From a virus: a stretch of DNA of 6,275 nt. The notes beneath the pieces were generated by a model. It was not told the DNA's origin, made no database searches, and was given only the letters and a program-made list of their open reading frames with translations. Below are positions 1 to 6,275 of this stretch, in pieces (the stretch's first letter is position 1; every line of letters starts with the position of its first letter). The stretch spans positions 1 through 6,275 of IMG/VR virus record IMGVR_UViG_3300000281_000051; one strand, written 5' to 3'. The translations under genes and the position numbers were made by a program.

Positions 1-55
1 TTATTCTTGTGATGATTTTATTTTGCATCATGTTAAACAATAATTTATTTAAGTT

Positions 56-286
56 ATGGAAAGAAGATATCAAGGTGTTTTAAAATTTAAGCGTTTTTTT
101 GGTGTTAAGGCTGGTCGTTCTATCTGGAAAGAGTCTTTTGTTAAGACGCATGTTTATACCGATCCTTTACCTGCTCGTTCCGAGCTTTGTTGGCTCCGCG
201 ATTATATTGTACCTGCCACTGGTGCCTGTGTCGTTGGTTATTATATTGATACTTTTTTTGATATGGATGAAAATCTTCCTTTATAA
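56..286 (+). CDS. Small hypothetical protein (76 aa) with a basic N-terminal half and an acidic C-terminal half. It may be a DNA-binding or packaging protein of the J/ORF8 kind.
   Basis: ATG at 56 and TAA at 284-286, two nt before the Rep ATG. Third-codon positions are strongly T-biased (ggt/gct/cgt/gtt), the same pattern as in VP1 and VP2. There are 11 K/R in 76 aa, concentrated in residues 3-46. No homology could be checked. Confidence 0.5.
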   Translation: MERRYQGVLKFKRFFGVKAGRSIWKESFVKTHVYTDPLPARSELCWLRDYIVPATGACVVGYYIDTFFDMDENLPL

Positions 287-288
287 TC

Positions 289-1836
289 ATGGATATTAAG
301 TGTTTACATTCCGTTATTCTTATCAACCCAGAAGCCCGTAAAAAGGCTCTGGATTTTGATCGTATTTACATTCGCGAACGTTGTCAATGCTGGATCATGG
401 AAACCTTTGTCCTTGAGCCCTGGCAATATTCCCCGAAAAAATGGTCTATTGGACTTTCGGATATAGATCATTGTTATCTCTTAAATTCTGAAACTGGTTA
501 TATGATTCCTCTTTATATCGCTGTCCCCTGTGGTTCTTGTATTATCTGTCGTAAACGTAAAGCTAATGCTTTGGCTACTCGTGCTATTATGGAGACAGAG
601 ACTGCTGGTTCTGCACCCCTTTTTATTACACTCACTTATAATCCCGAACACCTCCCTAAAAATGAACATGGTTATGAAACACTCCGAAAATTGGATTTTC
701 AATTGTTTTTTAAGCGTTTACGTTCTTTACTTGATAACCAAGCTATTCCTCATTCGCTGCGCTATCTCGCGTGTGGCGAGTATGGTTCTAAAACCAAAAG
801 ACCTCATTATCATTTACTTTTGTGGGGTTTTCCTGTTACGCATTTTAAGGATATACTTAAAGTCCAATCATTTATACAAAAAGCATGGTCTTACTTCCAG
901 GTTGACGAAAACGGTAAACGCATACCTTTCTATAGTAAATGTCGAACCTGTCCATTCAATCAATATAAGGAGCGTAACTCCTGCTCGGCTATTGCGCATC
1001 TATGCGCTGGCGCGCGTTTACGTTATCCGTCAGGAGCTTTTATTTATCGTCGGTATCCGATCGGATCGATAAAGGTTCTTCCTGCTAATTCTGGCGCACC
1101 TGCCTATATTACTAAATACATGGTTAAAGGTTCTAATGCTCCTCATTCTACCTGCGAGCCTCCTTTTCGTACCGCCTCTAATAGAGGCGGTGGTATTGGT
1201 TCTGCTTATATCCGTGCTCGGAAGGATGAAATTTTGAGTAACCCCTCTCTCGAAGCTCTTCCCGTTGTTGACCGTGTCACTGGTTCTGGTAAGCTCTTTT
1301 ATATGCCCATAGATTCGTGGGTAAAATCTACATTAATACCCTCTCCGTCATCCTATTTAAAATCTAAAGAATATGAGACAGTTCGTGATTTTTGTTACAC
1401 TTTTACATTATTTGAACAATGTGCCCAGCAGTTATATCGTCTTTGGCCTATGGATCGCTTTTTTGATGGTGAGTTGCAGTACTATACGGATGAGTTTTGT
1501 GACCCCTTTAAGCGTGAAAAATGGGCTGAGGCTTATGCTCATGTGCGCGAATATACTCCTGTTAATATACCTCACATTAATATCGGTAATTGGATAAAAT
1601 CTCGTGAGTATTTTAACGAATATATGTACACTTTAACAGAGCGTTTGGATATTTTAGCACGAAAAGTTTTGGAGATTGAAATACATGATTCGTATTTTCG
1701 CAGTCGAGAACAGTATTTGAAAACCCGTGTTGAGATATTTAAAAAGAAATATGGTGACAAAAAAACAAATCTTGGCGCTCTTGCAGAAAATATTGCCCTC
1801 TCCGTTGAGCGCAATAGATGGCGCGAATACTTTTAA
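289..1836 (+). CDS. VP4: Microviridae replication initiation protein, the rolling-circle HUH endonuclease (VP4 / gene A-like).
   Basis: 515-aa ORF. It has a CxxC Zn-finger-like motif (PCGSCIICRKRK, aa 80-91). RCR motif I is LFITLTY (nt 619-639). Motif II is the HUH block HYHLLLWG, preceded by ACGEYGSKTKRP (nt 805-828). Motif III is YITKYMVK (nt 1105-1128), which matches the phiX174 gene A active-site block YVAKYVNK with two Tyr four residues apart. Alternative in-frame starts are at 397 (METFVLE...) and 502. The true N-terminus is uncertain. Confidence 0.9.
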   Translation: MDIKCLHSVILINPEARKKALDFDRIYIRERCQCWIMETFVLEPWQYSPKKWSIGLSDIDHCYLLNSETGYMIPLYIAVPCGSCIICRKRKANALATRAIMETETAGSAPLFITLTYNPEHLPKNEHGYETLRKLDFQLFFKRLRSLLDNQAIPHSLRYLACGEYGSKTKRPHYHLLLWGFPVTHFKDILKVQSFIQKAWSYFQVDENGKRIPFYSKCRTCPFNQYKERNSCSAIAHLCAGARLRYPSGAFIYRRYPIGSIKVLPANSGAPAYITKYMVKGSNAPHSTCEPPFRTASNRGGGIGSAYIRARKDEILSNPSLEALPVVDRVTGSGKLFYMPIDSWVKSTLIPSPSSYLKSKEYETVRDFCYTFTLFEQCAQQLYRLWPMDRFFDGELQYYTDEFCDPFKREKWAEAYAHVREYTPVNIPHINIGNWIKSREYFNEYMYTLTERLDILARKVLEIEIHDSYFRSREQYLKTRVEIFKKKYGDKKTNLGALAENIALSVERNRWREYF

Positions 1837-2026
1837 CCTCGTAGTATATTATATTGTGTATGCGCTTGTCGTTATTTGTCTCTCGCTTTTGCTTTGGTTC
1901 TTGCCGTCTTGTACGGTAACCTTCTCGGTCCAGAAAAACAACAACAACTCCACTCAAAGTAGTGAGAGTAGTAGTAGTAGTTCTGTGGATTCTACGACTA
2001 TTTTTCAACCTCAAACATTTAAGTAA
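1751..2026 (+). CDS. Candidate overlapping gene for a 91-aa single-pass membrane protein. It has a basic amphipathic N-terminus, one TM helix (LVVYYIVYALVVICLSLLLWFLP) and a Ser/Asn-rich C-terminal tail. It may be a lysis or membrane protein.
   Basis: The +1 frame relative to Rep is open from 1727 (GTG) or 1751 (ATG) through the whole 189-nt Rep-VP1 spacer. It ends with TAA at 2024-2026, which overlaps the VP1 ATG (2026-2028) as TAATG, a configuration typical of translational coupling. A 189-nt non-coding gap would be out of character for this compact genome. An alternative GTG start at 1856 would give 56 aa. There is no RBS and no homology evidence. Confidence 0.3.
   Translation: MVTKKQILALLQKILPSPLSAIDGANTFNLVVYYIVYALVVICLSLLLWFLPSCTVTFSVQKNNNNSTQSSESSSSSSVDSTTIFQPQTFK
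1937..1981 (+). repeat. Tandem trinucleotide tracts: (AAC)4 at 1937-1948 and (AGT)2-GAG-(AGT)5 at 1958-1981.
   Basis: Read directly from the sequence. The repeats are in frame with the 1751..2026 ORF and encode NNNN and SSESSSSS. Confidence 0.9.
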
Positions 2027-4368
2027 TGGCAAGTGTTTTTAATAAAATCGGTGACATTAAAAATGATGTCAAGCGTAACAGTTTTGACTGGTCGCATGAT
2101 AACAATTTTACTACAGATTTAGGTCGCATCACTCCTGTTTTTACGGAGTTAGTGCCACCTAATAGTTCTATTCGCATTAAGCCAGAGTTTGGTCTTCGGT
2201 TTATGCCTATGATGTTTCCTATCCAAACAAAAATGAAAGCTTATCTGTCTTTTTATAAAGTCCCTTTGCGTACTTTGTGGAAGGATTATATGGATTTTAT
2301 TTCTGCTGATAATACAGAGGAATATCAGCCGCCTTTCATTAAGTTTAGCGGTAAGTCTTTCTCCGAAGGTGGTGCTTTATCTGAATCTGGTTTAGGCGAT
2401 TATATTGGTATGCCTGTTTCTAATATTGATACCAATTGGCAGGCTATAGATGTTGGCACTTTGGTTGATTCGACTAAAGGTGCTACTGCTATCTTTGGTT
2501 CTGCTACTAAACAGGGCAATTTACCCGAACTGCGTTTTTCTGTTATGGAGTACGTTAATGGTCCTTTCACTCCGCAGATTTCTTATTCTGACAATTCATG
2601 TTACATGCCTATTGGTAATGATTACTCTTTCTTTTCCCCTATCATTACTTTCTATTTTACTAAGGAGATGATAGATGCTGGTACTTTCCGTGTTAAATGG
2701 ACTGGTTCCTTGAATTTTGAGGGTACTTCTGCTCGTCAGGTTGCTGAACAGTTTGTTAATTTCACAAAGTGTTCTAAAACTCCTGTTATTCTTACTTTTA
2801 AGAAAAAACTAACTTCCACCCCTGTTGGTGATATTGGTCTACCGTTTGATGCTTCACAGAAGGTTTCATTCTTTGATCCTTTTTATGTTACTGACACGAA
2901 TTATCGTGTTAAATTTTCGTTTGAAGCTACTTTTAATATCGCTAATTTCCCCAATATGGGTATCAATGAAGAGGATGCTTTTAGTCTTGGCTTTACTGGT
3001 AGCATTTATAATATTTTCAATCTTGGTGGTAAACTCGGTTCTACGAATGTCAATTTGACATTCTCTTATAATACTTCTGGCGATTCGTCTTTGGTTTTCG
3101 CTCGTCCTGTTTCTGGTATTTCTACTCCTTATTATTCGGTTTATAATTCTACCGAAAAAGCTATTAAGGTGTCTGCTTATCCTTTCCGCGCGTATGAGGC
3201 TATATATAATGCTTATATTCGCAATACTCGCAATAATCCTTTTGTTCTTAATGGTAAAAAGACCTATAATCGCTGGATAACTACTGACGAAGGCGGTGTG
3301 GATTCTCTTACTCCTCTCGATCTTTTGTATGCTAATTGGCAATCGGACGCATATACTACCGCTCTCGCTGCTCCGCAACAAGGTGTTGCACCCCTTGTTG
3401 GTTTAACTACTTATGAAACTTCTTCTGTTAATGAAGCTGGTCATACGGTTACTACCGTTAATACTGCTATCGTTGACGAGGACGGTAATGCGTATAAAAT
3501 TGATTTTGAAAGTAATGGTGAGGCTCTTAAAGGTGTTAATTATACGCCTCTTAAAGCTGGTGAAGCTGTTAATATGCAGTCTCTCGTGTCTCCTGTTACT
3601 TCTGGTATTTCTATCAACGATTTTCGTAATGTTAATGCTTATCAGCGTTATTTGGAATTGAATCAGTTCCGCGGTTTTAGCTATAAGGAAATCATTGAGG
3701 GTCGTTTTGATGTTAATGTCCGTTATGATGCTTTGAATATGCCAGAATATCTTGGTGGTATTACTCGCGATATTATCGTTAATCCTATTACCCAAACTGT
3801 CGAAACTACTGATACTGGCTCGTACGTTGGCTCTCTTGGCTCTCAAGCTGGTCTCGCTACTTGTTTTGGTAATTCTGACGGTAGTATATCTGTGTTCTGT
3901 GACGAGGAAAGCATAGTAATGGGGATTATGTATGTGATGCCTATGCCTGTTTATGATAGCATTCTTCCTAAATGGTTGACTTATCGTGAACGTCTCGATT
4001 CTTTTAATCCCGAGTTTGATCACATTGGTTATCAGCCTATATACCTCAAAGAGTTGGCAGCTATTCAGGCTTTTGAATCTGGTAAGGATTTGAATACGGT
4101 TTTTGGTTACCAACGTCCTTGGTATGAATATGTTCAAAAGGTTGACCGCGCTCACGGTCTTTTCTTATCTTCTCTGCGTAACTTTATCATGTTCCGTAGT
4201 TTTGAGAACGCGCCCGAGCTTGGTGAGAGTTTTACTGTTATGCAGCCTGGTAGTGTCAATAATGTGTTCTCTGTCACTGAGGTTTCTGATAAAATTCTTG
4301 GTCAGATTCATTTTGATTGTACCGCGCAGTTACCTATTTCTCGAGTTGTTGTACCCCGTTTAGAGTAA
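2026..4368 (+). CDS. VP1: Microviridae major capsid protein (VP1 / F-like), 780 aa.
   Basis: The N-terminus MASVFNKIGDIKNDVKRNSFDWSHDNNFTTDLGRITPVF...LVPPNSSIRIKPE matches the conserved Microviridae VP1/F N-terminal pattern (S.F..s...ttT.d.G.l.P.....vLPgds). It is the longest ORF, with strong T3 codon bias. The ATG overlaps the upstream stop (TAATG). Only 6 nt separate it from the next gene. Confidence 0.93.
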   Translation: MASVFNKIGDIKNDVKRNSFDWSHDNNFTTDLGRITPVFTELVPPNSSIRIKPEFGLRFMPMMFPIQTKMKAYLSFYKVPLRTLWKDYMDFISADNTEEYQPPFIKFSGKSFSEGGALSESGLGDYIGMPVSNIDTNWQAIDVGTLVDSTKGATAIFGSATKQGNLPELRFSVMEYVNGPFTPQISYSDNSCYMPIGNDYSFFSPIITFYFTKEMIDAGTFRVKWTGSLNFEGTSARQVAEQFVNFTKCSKTPVILTFKKKLTSTPVGDIGLPFDASQKVSFFDPFYVTDTNYRVKFSFEATFNIANFPNMGINEEDAFSLGFTGSIYNIFNLGGKLGSTNVNLTFSYNTSGDSSLVFARPVSGISTPYYSVYNSTEKAIKVSAYPFRAYEAIYNAYIRNTRNNPFVLNGKKTYNRWITTDEGGVDSLTPLDLLYANWQSDAYTTALAAPQQGVAPLVGLTTYETSSVNEAGHTVTTVNTAIVDEDGNAYKIDFESNGEALKGVNYTPLKAGEAVNMQSLVSPVTSGISINDFRNVNAYQRYLELNQFRGFSYKEIIEGRFDVNVRYDALNMPEYLGGITRDIIVNPITQTVETTDTGSYVGSLGSQAGLATCFGNSDGSISVFCDEESIVMGIMYVMPMPVYDSILPKWLTYRERLDSFNPEFDHIGYQPIYLKELAAIQAFESGKDLNTVFGYQRPWYEYVQKVDRAHGLFLSSLRNFIMFRSFENAPELGESFTVMQPGSVNNVFSVTEVSDKILGQIHFDCTAQLPISRVVVPRLE

Positions 4369-4374
4369 TTTTTT

Positions 4375-4680
4375 ATGAAAGTTTTATCTCGTATTAATCC
4401 CAATGAGTCGTATCATCGCGTTGTCGTTGTGCGATCATCTTCTGATGAACCTGTTGTTTCTGGTCTCTCTGTCACTCCCTCGGATATTGAACGTCTTGCT
4501 CGTCAAGGTATTCCCGTGTCTGTTCCTAATGCCAATAGTTTTTATAACATTGATTCTGGTTTGGATGTTCCCCCGGAATTAAAGGTTGATGCGGATCGCA
4601 ATACTCTTTGGGAAACTTCCCAGGCTTCTAAAGCTCGTATTATGAAGGCGCGTAAGCGTGAACGCGATCATTTGACATAA
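4375..4680 (+). CDS. Small hypothetical protein (101 aa) between VP1 and VP2, with a basic C-terminus (KARIMKARKRERDHLT). It may be an accessory, scaffolding or DNA-binding protein.
   Basis: The ATG lies 6 nt after the VP1 stop, and TAA at 4678-4680. Codon usage matches the neighbouring structural genes. No homology could be checked from sequence alone. Confidence 0.55.
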   Translation: MKVLSRINPNESYHRVVVVRSSSDEPVVSGLSVTPSDIERLARQGIPVSVPNANSFYNIDSGLDVPPELKVDADRNTLWETSQASKARIMKARKRERDHLT

Positions 4681-4708
4681 TTTGTTCATATATCTAAAGT
4701 GTAATTTT

Positions 4709-5860
4709 ATGAGTGCTGCTGCTTTAACTGCCCTTTTGGGCGCTGGTACTGGTGGCGCAACTCTTTTAAATGCTGGTGCTGGCGTTGCTTCTGGTATCTT
4801 CGGTTCTATTGGAGCTGGTAGACGCCAAAAGCGCGCCATTGCTGCACAAAAAGAGGAGAACGCGCAAGCCCGTGCTTGGTCTGAAAAAATGGCTCGTTGG
4901 TATGCTAATAATGAGCGTGCCAATCTTGCTGATGAACGTGCGTATAATAATCCTTCTGCCGTTATGTCACGTTTAAAGGATGCTGGTTTAAATCCTGATC
5001 TTATATACGGTAATGGTGCTGCTGGTCTTGTTGATAGTAATGTTGCTGGTACTGCTCCTGCGTCCTCTGTTCCCCCTGCTGATGTTGCAGGTCCTATTAT
5101 GGCTACTCCTACCGCTATGGAGTCTTTGTTTCAAGGTGCTGCCTATGCGAAGACTCTCGCTGAGACGAATAATATTAAGGCTGATACTTCAAAAAAAGAA
5201 GGTGAGGTAACCTCTCTTAATATTGATAATTTTGTTAAGGCTGCCTCTTCTGACAATGCTATAAAGATGTCTGGCTTGGAAGTTCAGTTAACTAAGGCGC
5301 AGGCTGAATATACTGAAAGTCAGAAAAGTAAGTTGATTTCTGAAATTAATGATATTAACGAGCATGTTAATCTTCTCAAGGCTCAAATATCTGAAACTTG
5401 GTCTCGTACTGCGAATTTGGATGCTTCTACTATTGCTACTCGTACCGCTGCTATCCTTAATAACCGTCGTTTTGACCTCGAGTGTGAAGAGTTTGCACGT
5501 CGCGTACGTGAGACTGATGCGAAAGTTAATCTTTCCGAAGCGGAAGCAAAGAGTATCCTTGTAACCATGTATGCTAAAGTTAATAATATCGATACCGATA
5601 CCGCTTTGAAGCAAGCGAATATCCGTCTTACTGATGCCCAAAAGACACAAGTCGAACATTATACCAATAGCATAGATATTCATCGTGATGCCGCCGTCTT
5701 TAAGCTCCAACAGGATCAAAAGTATGATGATGCCCAGCGTATCGTTACCGTCGCTAATCAGGCTACCCAGTCATTGTATCACATTTCTCAGGTTGCCTCT
5801 GATTGGCTTCCGTCCCCTGGTGGCATTGCGAAAAAACTCCTGCGCTCTGGCAAGAAATAA
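4709..5860 (+). CDS. VP2: Microviridae minor capsid / DNA pilot protein (VP2 / H-like), 383 aa from ATG 4709. The ORF track extends it to a TTG at 4682.
   Basis: The N-terminus is Gly/Ala-rich and hydrophobic (AAALTALLGAGTGGATLLNAGAGVASGIFGSIGAG). The motif NPSAVMSRLKDAGLNPDLIYG resembles the conserved VP2 block (..RLKAAGLNP.L.YG) of gokushovirus-type pilot proteins. The C-terminal ~200 aa are heptad-like, K/E/Q/A-rich coiled coil, consistent with an H-protein-like DNA-translocating tube. Confidence 0.8.
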   Translation: MSAAALTALLGAGTGGATLLNAGAGVASGIFGSIGAGRRQKRAIAAQKEENAQARAWSEKMARWYANNERANLADERAYNNPSAVMSRLKDAGLNPDLIYGNGAAGLVDSNVAGTAPASSVPPADVAGPIMATPTAMESLFQGAAYAKTLAETNNIKADTSKKEGEVTSLNIDNFVKAASSDNAIKMSGLEVQLTKAQAEYTESQKSKLISEINDINEHVNLLKAQISETWSRTANLDASTIATRTAAILNNRRFDLECEEFARRVRETDAKVNLSEAEAKSILVTMYAKVNNIDTDTALKQANIRLTDAQKTQVEHYTNSIDIHRDAAVFKLQQDQKYDDAQRIVTVANQATQSLYHISQVASDWLPSPGGIAKKLLRSGKK

Positions 5861-5869
5861 CTCGCTAAT

Positions 5870-5917
5870 CGCCGTTAGGCGTACTCATTATCCATTAATG
5901 TAGCAAGCCGTAGGCGT
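5870..5917 (+). other. Two copies of a short GC hairpin motif downstream of VP2: CGCC-GTTA-GGCG at 5870-5881, and the related GCCGTAGGCGT at 5907-5917.
   Basis: Each has a 4-bp GC stem with a tetraloop. They make a direct repeat of GCCGT(T)AGGCGT. No U-tract follows, so any terminator function is doubtful. Confidence 0.3.
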
Positions 5918-5934
5918 GGCGAAATATACCAAAT

Positions 5935-5970
5935 GAGCGTGAGCGAATCGAGCGAAGCGAGCCAAGCGCG
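5935..5970 (+). repeat. Iteron-like cluster of GAGCG/AGCGA short direct repeats (gagcgtGAGCGAatcGAGCGAAGCGAGCcaAGCGCG).
   Basis: GAGCG occurs at 5935, 5941 and 5950. AGCGAG is at 5956, and AGCGCG is at 5965. All lie within 36 nt of the main non-coding region. Confidence 0.6.
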
Positions 5971-5975
5971 TTACA

Positions 5976-5989
5976 GGATAGATGTATCC
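5976..5989 (+). other. Small hairpin GGATA-GATG-TATCC, followed by a TATCCGT direct repeat (5985-5991 and 6016-6022).
   Basis: 5-bp inverted repeat with a 4-nt loop, read directly from the sequence. Confidence 0.3.
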
Positions 5990-6038
5990 GTAAATGCTAA
6001 TGGTTCGCCTCGTTTTATCCGTTTACCGTCAACAATAG

Positions 6039-6109
6039 ACGCGCGTACCCTAAACCAATAAGAATGAATAGAATTGTCCCACCGCGGTTAGAGCGGGCTT
6101 TTCCCCTCT
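6039..6109 (+). promoter_or_regulatory. GC-rich structured segment with two perfect 8-bp palindromes, ACGCGCGT (6039-6046) and ACCGCGGT (6081-6088), and an imperfect hairpin AGAG(C)GGG-CTTTT-CCCCTCT (6090-6109). It is a candidate origin or Rep/host-factor binding region.
   Basis: The palindromes and the stem-loop (7 bp with a 1-nt bulge) were read directly. The segment sits in the only large non-coding region of the genome. Confidence 0.35.
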
Positions 6110-6134
6110 TGATAATATAAGCGCAACTGACATG

Positions 6135-6221
6135 TTGACTATTGAAGTTGCAAATGTTACCTTAGCATTATAGAAATAATATTCCGAAATATGTTTTATA
6201 ACATATAGTCGGTTCTTGCTT
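6135..6221 (+). promoter_or_regulatory. AT-rich putative promoter/operator region upstream of the first gene of the + strand gene block. It contains TTGACT (6135-6140) and the inverted repeat ATATGTT-TTAT-AACATAT (6189-6206).
   Basis: AT-rich sequence immediately 5' of the gene block (continues as nt 1-55). TTGACT is a sigma70 -35-like hexamer, but no good -10 sits at 17 bp. TATTTTG near nt 19-25 is a near match to the Bacteroidetes -7 motif TAnnTTTG. Host and sigma factor are unknown. Confidence 0.3.
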
Positions 6222-6275
6222 TTATTCTTGTGATGATTTTATTTTGCATCATGTTAAACAATAATTTATTTAAGT
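6222..6275 (+). repeat. Terminal redundancy that comes from circular permutation: nt 6222-6275 are identical to nt 1-54. The unit genome is 6221 nt.
   Basis: Exact 54-nt match between the start and the end of the window. Confidence 0.95.

Follow-up and report, generated by a model that had tools for sequence, protein, structure and literature searches.

The replication origin of phiX174 divides into recognition, spacer and key parts, and the plasmid pC194 is reportedly nicked in CTTG/ATA. In phiX174 the cut is made between G4305 and A4306 by Tyr343/Tyr347 of protein A (bioRxiv 10.64898/2026.07.25.740675). In the searchable literature we found no description of a microvirus replication origin outside the phiX174 group, nor of the one considered here, and text searches for its motif, like searches for an origin in Alpavirinae or gokushoviruses, turned up nothing relevant in the literature. 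The present analysis concerns the intergenic region of a microvirus from IMG/VR, record IMGVR_UViG_3300000281_000051, positions 1 to 6,275 (this whole stretch of 6,275 nt is called the window). Since positions 1-54 are repeated at 6222-6275, the window is a complete circular microvirus genome of 6221 nt; every gene lies on the plus strand, and the sole long gap, of 416 nt, separates VP2 from the first early open reading frame (ORF). An earlier note on this DNA had singled out the gap as the only long non-coding stretch and had suggested that it may hold a Rep nick site or origin together with structures for strand synthesis. The gap is genuine and non-coding, and it does contain a conserved nick motif and covarying hairpins, but the particular elements that the note had named for these roles were not supported. 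We consider it likely that the gap is a composite cis-acting control region and that its core, 6078-6151, is a viral-strand (+) rolling-circle origin of the phiX174/pC194 type.

The conserved core and its proposed nick motif

From 5' to 3' the core is made up of the covarying hairpin A, a pyrimidine tract, CTTG/ATAATATAAG (the slash marks a known or predicted cut), the AACTGACA box and the covarying hairpin C (Table 1), and over 6098-6132 the window reads CTTTTCCCCT CTTG ATAATATAAG CGC AACTGACA. Conservation was followed in about 30 related genomes: close relatives of the window taken from IMG/VR, a graded series, L048 to L054, found by searching for homologues of Rep and looking up their contigs (Rep identity falls from 68% to 39%), a Coprobacter prophage (L055) whose Rep is 32% identical to that of the window, and additional microviruses from chicken, pig, dog, bat, rodent, lemur and marmot samples that a BLASTN search with the core recovered among GenBank phages. 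In the 27 distinct sequences on which the pattern was counted, C-T-Y-G/A-T-A-W-T-A-W-W-W-G-NNN-AACTGACA is invariant or two-state and is preceded by a C/T-rich tract, and the AT-rich spacer ATAWTAWWW lies between nick and box. The box itself is kept in 26 of the 27 whatever its pairing partner, the exception (L069) reading ACCTGACA, and near variants of the nick and box pattern occur in 4 further genomes. The genomes that share the core pattern include those with a Rep as low as 32% identical to that of the window. In annotated GenBank records, and likewise in contigs L048-L055, one syntenic copy of the motif is found in the gap that follows either VP2 or the scaffold gene, and in the GenBank phages recovered with the core the match lies in unannotated DNA 25-45 nt past the pilot or scaffold gene. 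Across six relatives the identity over 6121-6180 is 80%, as high as in those segments of the capsid gene that score best (up to 84%). The earlier note's list did not include the element that is conserved most strongly, CTTGATAATATAAG...AACTGACA (6108-6132), and the range that it proposed to cover with oligonucleotides for nicking assays (5930-6110) stops one base short of the predicted nick.

The element resembles two nick sites that have been mapped. The window's CTTTTCCCCTCTTG/ATAATATAAGCGCAACT can be set against CTCCCCCAACTTG/ATATTAATAACACTATAGACCAC of phiX174 (CAACTTG/ATATTAATAAC, with the rep_origin annotated at A4306), and AACTTGATATTA of the relative L054 is identical to phiX174 at 12/12 nt. 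In pC194, whose origin sequence TCTTTCTTATCTTGATAATAAGGGTAACT was taken from PLSDB, a hairpin (AAAGGATTT...AAATCCTTT), then TCTTTCTTAT CTTGATAATAAG, and then a second hairpin (GGGTAACTA...TAGTTACCC) follow one another in the same layout as window 6082-6151. By analogy with these sites we infer that the nick falls between G6111 and A6112. The replicon also encodes its own HUH initiator: the Rep translation contains FITLTY, the HUH motif HYH (173-175) and YITKY (273-277), which is a YxxKY motif, and the corresponding motifs of the phiX174 A protein are HFH and YVAKY. A PDB sequence search with Rep gave no match.

The CTTGATA heptamer of the nick motif (6108-6114, plus strand) occurs a second time on the plus strand inside rep, at 730-736 (codons L-L-D-N). 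The full motif has one copy in the genome and none in the Rep gene. A phiX-like origin inside the Rep gene was the example that the earlier note had given of nicking elsewhere; such an origin at 730-736 was rejected because the heptamer there is not conserved among relatives.

Two 5.3-kb microviruses, Dipodfec virus RodF1_53 and Dulem virus 196 (L073 and L075), carry CTTG/ATATT at about 490-540 in the loop of a hairpin whose stem is compensated between them (CTGCTATA...TATAGCAG versus CCGCT...AGCGG); many HUH nick sites are usually presented in this way, in a hairpin loop. When 185,579 genomes were scanned with the nick pattern, the 85 matches were about as many as expected by chance, and none of them adjoins microvirus genes, a Parabacteroides CRISPR spacer apart. 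Three IMG/VR scans with window-specific patterns returned the close clade and chance matches and nothing else.

Table 1. Features of the intergenic region and of the surrounding genome (window coordinates)
Feature	Position	Strand	Evidence or remark
Pyrimidine tract CTTTTCCCCT	6098-6107	+	Positions -13 to -4 mostly C/T in 27 distinct sequences
Nick motif CTTG/ATAATATAAG	6108-6121	+	Predicted cut G6111/A6112; sole match in genome
AACTGACA box, putative Rep binding ('key') sequence	6125-6132	+	14-21 nt 3' of nick (+14 to +21)
Hairpin A, CCGC-GGTTAGA-GCGG	6082-6096 (6082-6085 with 6093-6096)	+	94% paired; upstream flank of core
Hairpin C, GCAACT-17-nt loop-AGTTGC	6123-6151 (6123-6128 with 6146-6151)	+	98% paired; downstream flank of core
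Hairpin E, ATTAT-AGAA-ATAAT	6167-6180 (6167-6171 with 6176-6180)	+	100% paired
Hairpin B, outer CCGA/TCGG, inner ATATGTT-TTAT-AACATAT	6184-6212	+	Outer 6184-6187 with 6209-6212; inner 6189-6195 with 6200-6206
Small hairpin CGCC-GTTA-GGCG	5870-5881	+	DNA fold; just 3' of VP2 stop
Hairpin D, GCC-GTA-GGC, then conserved GTGGCGAAAT	5907-5915	+	Stem covaries
Long imperfect hairpin	5935-6026	+	5' arm GAGCG repeats 5935-5963; 3' arm GGTTCGCCTCGTTTTATCCGTTTAC 6002-6026
3' arm of long-range closing helix	6039-6053	+	Pairs with about 5911-5921; contains ACGCGCGT; then conserved unpaired CCCTAAACCAAT
Bacteroidetes-type -7 box TTATTTTG	6239-6246 (= 18-25)	+	30 nt upstream of ATG at 56
Whole intergenic control region	5861-6221 plus 1-55 of circle (5861..6275)	+	ORF list, terminal repeat
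Early ORF, 76 aa	56-286	+	ORF list
Rep (VP4), cognate rolling-circle initiator	289-1836	+	Pfam REP_ORF2-G2P, 8e-16
Major capsid protein, 780 aa	2026-4368	+	Phage_F
101-aa ORF		+	
VP2	4709-5860	+	

Flanking hairpins, transcription signals and genomic setting

The hairpins around the motif were assessed in an 18-sequence alignment over five helices (A, C, E, B inner and B outer), with partner-slid and 500-shuffle controls. In the five helices 92.5% of cells pair, as against 33-47% with slid partners, and 10 pairs are changed on both sides; the observed values were reached in 0/500 shuffles, a control that overstates significance since the sequences share descent. Two-sided changes affect 3/4 pairs of hairpin A (CCTC/GAGG, CGGC/GCCG, CAGC/GCTG, CGCC/GGCG, CCGT/ACGG) and 3/5 pairs of hairpin E (ATTCT/AGAAT, ATTTT/AAAAT, GTGAT/ATCAC, GTTAT/ATAAC). 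Hairpin C has the compensated variants GGAACT/AGTTCC, CATAACT/AGTTATG, ACAACT/AGTTGT and CGTAAC/GTTACG, and the outer stem of hairpin B is compensated in L006 and L007 (CGGT/ACCG). The inner palindrome of hairpin B (6189-6206) is nearly identical in the 18 diverged sequences and shows no covariation, a pattern which suggests that the sequence itself is recognised and that its role is not purely structural; it might, for example, be an operator, lying about 35 nt upstream of the promoter box. Of 22 genomes that were folded as DNA, nearly all have a hairpin whose end lies 8-20 nt ahead of CTTG, and another begins right after the motif; these flanking hairpins have unrelated stem sequences and a mean z of about -2 on each side, and the upstream fold chose another pairing in 2 of the 22 genomes, the close relatives L004 and L005. 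The folding check proposed in the earlier note also came out in favour of structure, as the gap folds better than shuffles both as DNA (z = -2.4) and as RNA (z = -3.6), with z = -3.2 for 6070-6225.

Several elements that the note had read as plausible recognition sites for Rep or PriA turned out to be parts of helices, and as such the named motifs are for the most part not kept in related genomes. The two palindromes, ACGCGCGT (6039-6046) and ACCGCGGT (6081-6088), are present with starts 42 nt apart, but they are not conserved as palindromes and both are helix arms: ACCGCGGT is the 5' arm of helix A together with the start of its loop and is replaced in relatives by ACCTCGGT, ACGGCGGT or ACAGCGGT, each with a matching change in the 3' arm, and ACGCGCGT is not palindromic in relatives either (ATGCGCGC...). 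The bulged stem-loop with a CTTTT loop, AGAGCGGGCTTTTCCCCTCT (6090-6109), does appear in the DNA minimum-energy fold but has no comparative support; it was rejected as a conserved structure, for no pair is changed on both sides, it does no better than shuffles and it competes with the covarying hairpin A.

It could be argued that the hairpins are late-operon terminators or mRNA-stabilising 3' structures followed by an early promoter, and that the origin lies elsewhere. With all genes in the same direction, late transcripts must end here; the Bacteroidetes -7 box is conserved, a T-rich run follows hairpin B in the window, the many G.T pairs suit RNA, and in phiX174 hairpins unite the roles of terminator and origin. 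The box in the window has one mismatch to TAnnTTTG and no -33 TTTG at the right spacing (about 19-21 nt upstream), and seven relatives have a canonical TAnnTTTG at the aligned position, among them TATCTTTG, TAGCTTTG, TACCTTTG, TATATTTG, TATTTTTG and TACATTTG. The strict Bacteroidetes promoter pattern has no match in the window. The transcriptional explanation, however, leaves unaccounted for the invariant unpaired CTTG/ATAWTA...AACTGACA, which matches two mapped nick sites and has no other copy in the genome, and a sigma-70 promoter and terminator scan found no plus-strand sites in the gap. A terminator role of hairpin B is doubtful because relatives do not keep its T-rich tail. L052 has a canonical intrinsic terminator directly 5' of hairpin A and, on the 3' side of the core, the TACATTTG box; in that genome the core thus falls between transcription units, which favours a role at the level of DNA. 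We regard a region serving transcription alone as unlikely. Both GC hairpins that had been noticed after VP2 exist, CGCC-GTTA-GGCG (5870-5881) and GCC-GTA-GGC (5907-5915); the former keeps its stem and varies its loop in relatives and has no T-run 3' of it.

Related microviruses also occur as Bacteroidales prophages, and palindromic AT-rich sequences such as ATATGTTTTATAACATAT would be in keeping with a site (attachment or dif-like) at which the phage integrates into the host chromosome. In the Coprobacter prophage, however, the motif is internal, away from the prophage junctions (these fall between rep and the ORFs that precede the capsid gene), and for this reason the core does not appear to be an attachment site; nor did the scan of 185,579 genomes reveal a motif-bearing prophage junction. 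Such a function is most improbable. This prophage (Coprobacter secundus GCA_027690015, JAQFDL010000002.1, about 5300-11600) sits between a TPR gene and a THUMP-like gene, its circle having been opened between rep and the small ORFs preceding the capsid gene, and its origin-like core is at about 9938.

The host of the window phage is probably a member of the Bacteroidales, because a Rep homologue sits in the Coprobacter secundus prophage, a Parabacteroides spacer matches the motif and relatives have Bacteroidetes-type promoter boxes. The spacer, recorded under 3319-3354 of L108 (CAKVBA010000004.1, the metagenome-assembled genome of an uncultured Parabacteroides sp.), belongs to a CRISPR array in which the repeat (GTTCTAATTGTACCTTTATGGAATTGAAAT) occurs at least 52 times. 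Its reverse complement, CATCCCCTACTTGATAATATTAGTGCAACTGACAGG, coincides exactly with the core of a related microvirus, from the pyrimidine tract through the nick motif to AACTGACAGG, and this links motif-bearing phages to Parabacteroides. The nearest GenBank records are unclassified Microviridae from dog faeces (85%, 84% and 72% identity). In the capsid gene the block 2400-3120 is hypervariable, 24-43% identical across six relatives, as against 70-84% in the remainder of the gene, and probably encodes surface loops under host or immune selection. The spacer between rep and the capsid gene contains a run of 8 AGT trinucleotides (1958-1981), read as a serine run in an ORF (1727-2026) that overlaps the end of rep.

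The GC-rich upstream domain

The description of the gap as locally GC-rich, given in the earlier note, holds for its first 240 nt (5861-6100, 48.3% GC) but not for the gap as a whole (39.4%, versus 40.0% in the genome) or for its last 176 nt (6101-55, 27.3%); more striking than the gap's GC content is its loss of the T excess. The GC-rich part contains a folded domain (about 5907-6053) with a closing helix, hairpin D and a long imperfect hairpin. In the closing helix, where consensus columns 26-36 pair with 159-169, the sole changes are wobble-compatible (T or C opposite G, A or G opposite T), and the stem of hairpin D becomes GTAAC/GTTAC in L050 and GAAAC/GTTTC in L051. The long hairpin, with the apex GGATA-GATG-TATCC (5976-5989), is predicted with DNA and with RNA parameters, in the consensus fold and in each relative folded alone; its arms are compensated between the window (GTGAGCG/CGTTTAC) and L050 (GCCAGCG/CGCTGGC), and it has numerous G.T pairs and changes between G-C and G.T. 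The many G.T pairs indicate that the fold forms on the plus strand. Two conserved segments predicted to be unpaired, 5923-5933 (ATATACCAAAT) and 6047-6059 (CCCTAAACCAAT), flank the long hairpin; both contain ACCAA(A)T, which could be a repeated recognition motif on single-stranded DNA.

The GAGCG/AGCGA cluster was originally interpreted as a set of iterons bound by Rep, with the palindromes and the CTTTT stem as Rep or PriA elements. The repeats do exist at 5935-5963 (Tandem Repeats Finder reports 5941-5968, period 9, 3.1 copies), their sequence is conserved in the window clade, L048, L050 and L051, and the CTTTT stem-loop is in the minimum-energy fold of the DNA. Yet the repeat block is the 5' arm of the long hairpin, pairing lengthwise with the 3' arm, in which L050 compensates, and it is about 150 nt from the nick motif. 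L003 and L053, L052, and L054 lack the repeats although their Reps (51%, 53%) are about as close as that of L051 (55%); L003 and L053 have in the same place an unrelated long hairpin of about 25 bp (L003 was folded), and in L052 and L054 the whole upstream domain is missing. Taken with the palindromes, which are not kept as such, and with the CTTTT stem, which lacks covariation and overlaps hairpin A, this makes the iteron interpretation quite unlikely. As far as sequence comparison goes, the domain fits better with a modular element of structure, open to exchange. An IMG/VR scan with the block-1 motif gave zero new relatives, a metagenome scan for the GAGCG cluster gave, among the matches listed, one true relative (L289) besides matches by chance in soil contigs rich in GC (mean 64%), and in the scans made the domain was not found outside the window clade.

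A structure of this kind could also act as RNA. The closed multi-helix fold, the RNA z of -3.6, the many G.U pairs with one-sided changes between G-C and G-U and the conserved unpaired segments ATATACCAAAT and CCCTAAACCAAT would all be compatible with a new family of structured non-coding RNA (about 5885-6060) that has its own function outside replication. Against this, Rfam 15 has zero matches in 5861-6275 at E <= 10, no promoter-like site lies upstream, the domain is patchy among close relatives, with an unrelated hairpin instead in L003, and the scans made found it nowhere outside the clade, so that we hold a separate RNA family to be very unlikely. ARAGORN found no tRNA or tmRNA in the gap. 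Still less credible is that the stretch codes for a 42-aa protein (ORF 5933-6061), a candidate that was rejected: its ATG and stop are kept in L001 and L048, but the variable columns are distributed 10/12/17 by codon position with no third-position excess, frameshifts alter the C-terminal half in the close relatives L004, L006 and L014, L050 and L051 have a truncation to 19 aa, the ORF is missing in L003, and there is no Pfam match.

The domain is a stable imperfect plus-strand hairpin structure in non-coding DNA and is orientation-specific, as would be expected of a complementary-strand origin. By analogy, this is the most likely single function of the domain, although we propose it tentatively, and like the T_F/ori(-) hairpin of phiX174 it may double as the 3' end of late transcripts. 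A more specific version, that 5907-6053 is a previously undescribed kind of complementary-strand origin of Bacteroidales single-stranded DNA phages, modular and swapped among relatives, whose plus-strand fold recruits host polymerase or primase, is conceivable but on the whole doubtful. Such an origin would comprise the closing helix, hairpin D, the hairpin of about 90 nt built on the GAGCG repeats and the two unpaired ACCAA(A)T segments. If this version holds, the domain and the nick core together would amount to a complete (+)/(-) origin map, the first for the abundant gut microviruses that do not belong to the phiX174 group.

Comparison with known origins

Several observations weigh against assigning the core to a viral-strand origin and the gap to replication control. 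The position of the nick rests on analogy, and a short AT-rich motif beside hairpins could instead be a protein operator. Two relatives, L014 and L016 (IMG/VR 3300022758_000016 and 3300045988_004901), read CTCG/ATAATA in place of CTTG/ATAATA within near-identical cores. No equivalent motif was found in a comparable setting in the three classical gokushoviruses Chp2, phiMH2K and SpV4, so the motif is not family-wide, and the BLASTP match of Rep to the phiX174 A protein is marginal (E = 0.09) and limited to the HUH region. To these may be added the shared descent behind the shuffle control, the fact that for the upstream domain a role as single-stranded DNA and one as RNA are not told apart by any observation, and L052 and L054, which without this domain must start the complementary strand in some other way. 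The CTCG variant is also present in the prophage L055, which indicates that this motif position (given as -1) tolerates C.

We nevertheless favour the origin, and on the sequence evidence the core would be a new member of the known phiX174/pC194 class of double-strand origins (dso), as it combines the nick core, a spacer with a 3' box, an HUH initiator and a single syntenic copy. In the mechanism that we propose, the supercoiled double-stranded replicative form would be bound at the AACTGACA box and at hairpin C by Rep, a two-tyrosine HUH endonuclease, the AT-rich spacer ATAATATAA would melt, and Rep would cut the plus strand at G6111/A6112 in CTTG/ATA and stay joined to the 5' end. The two hairpins A and C, with the pyrimidine tract, would frame the nick and keep it exposed. 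The 3'-OH would then be extended by host polymerase, and after one round, once the site is regenerated, Rep would cut and rejoin there, so that a circular plus strand is set free. Further 3', hairpins E and B would be followed by the Bacteroidetes-type promoter of the early operon (ORF 56-286 and Rep), and the upstream domain would start the complementary (-) strand on the incoming single strand through the host primosome or RNA polymerase.

The prediction of a single nucleotide position (G6111/A6112) and of a minimal origin of about 75 nt poses a testable question for large-capsid, Bacteroidales-associated gut microviruses. The core may also be used as a conserved non-coding anchor to align, orient and detect such genomes, and it is a candidate part for single-stranded DNA vectors in Bacteroidales.

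A close counterpart is ori(+) of phiX174, the 30-nt CAACTTG/ATATTAATAACACTATAGACCAC that the gene A protein cuts. Like it, the core has a C-rich tract (CTCCCCCAA in phiX174), CTTG/ATA, an AT-rich spacer, plus-strand polarity, a conserved box on the 3' side of the nick, about 11-23 nt away, and a two-tyrosine HUH initiator with Y-x-x-K-Y. The phiX174 origin, however, lies inside gene A, whereas the present one is intergenic with no conserved copy in rep; the 3' box is AACTGACA here and CACTATAGACCAC in phiX174, two covarying hairpins frame the nick here, and the Reps are alike at the motif level only. With the dso of the pC194/pUB110 family the core shares the order of hairpin, pyrimidine tract, CTTGATAATAAG and a hairpin whose 5' arm (T/C)AACT pairs with AGTT(A/G) (TAACT in pC194). 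The dso is likewise intergenic, with a structured lagging-strand origin just upstream of it. Unlike the YxxKY Rep of the window, pC194 RepA is a Rep_1 protein with one catalytic Tyr and a Glu (PMC5703833). Moreover, the plasmids of the pC194/pUB110 family belong to Firmicutes and not, as this phage, to Bacteroidales.

The filamentous phages Ff (M13/f1) have a non-coding region of about 0.4-0.5 kb with several plus-strand hairpins, in which the complementary-strand origin stands beside the viral-strand nick. The gap described here resembles it in that one non-coding region packs several plus-strand hairpins, but the sequences and the initiator are unrelated, and the Ff region includes a packaging signal, to which nothing here points. 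In the plasmid single-strand origin ssoA, the consensus places RSB and CS-6 (TAGCGT) in the terminal loop. The apical loop in the window is GATG (5981-5984), and the window contains no TAGCG; at the two variable bases of GAGCG-NN-AGCGAA it has TG, where relatives have TC, TT, AT or CC. In pC194 (L293 91-170, NC_002013) a hairpin upstream of the nick has the loop GAGCGTAGCGA, which resembles GAGCGTTAGCGAA in L006 and L016; this likeness to CS-6 of ssoA is probably a coincidence, as TAG is not conserved among the phages. What the upstream domain has in common with ssoA and with the phiX174 ori(-)/PriA site is a long imperfect hairpin of the viral or displaced strand, intergenic and just upstream of the nick, although no sequence similarity to either could be shown. 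The T_F/ori(-) hairpin of phiX174 combines the roles of transcript end and origin (bioRxiv 10.64898/2026.07.25.740675; PMC5714925).

Within the microviruses, conserved intergenic hairpins with compensatory substitutions have been described in roodoodoo- and reekeekee-microviruses and proposed to serve strand synthesis (PMC9865509). They are similar to the present ones in being compensated and in lying between the structural genes and rep, but they belong to other clades, have other sequences, and the 2022 study identified no nick motif. The nick motif of the window would place these gut phages beside phiX174 and the Firmicutes plasmids, all linked by an origin of the CTTG/ATA type.

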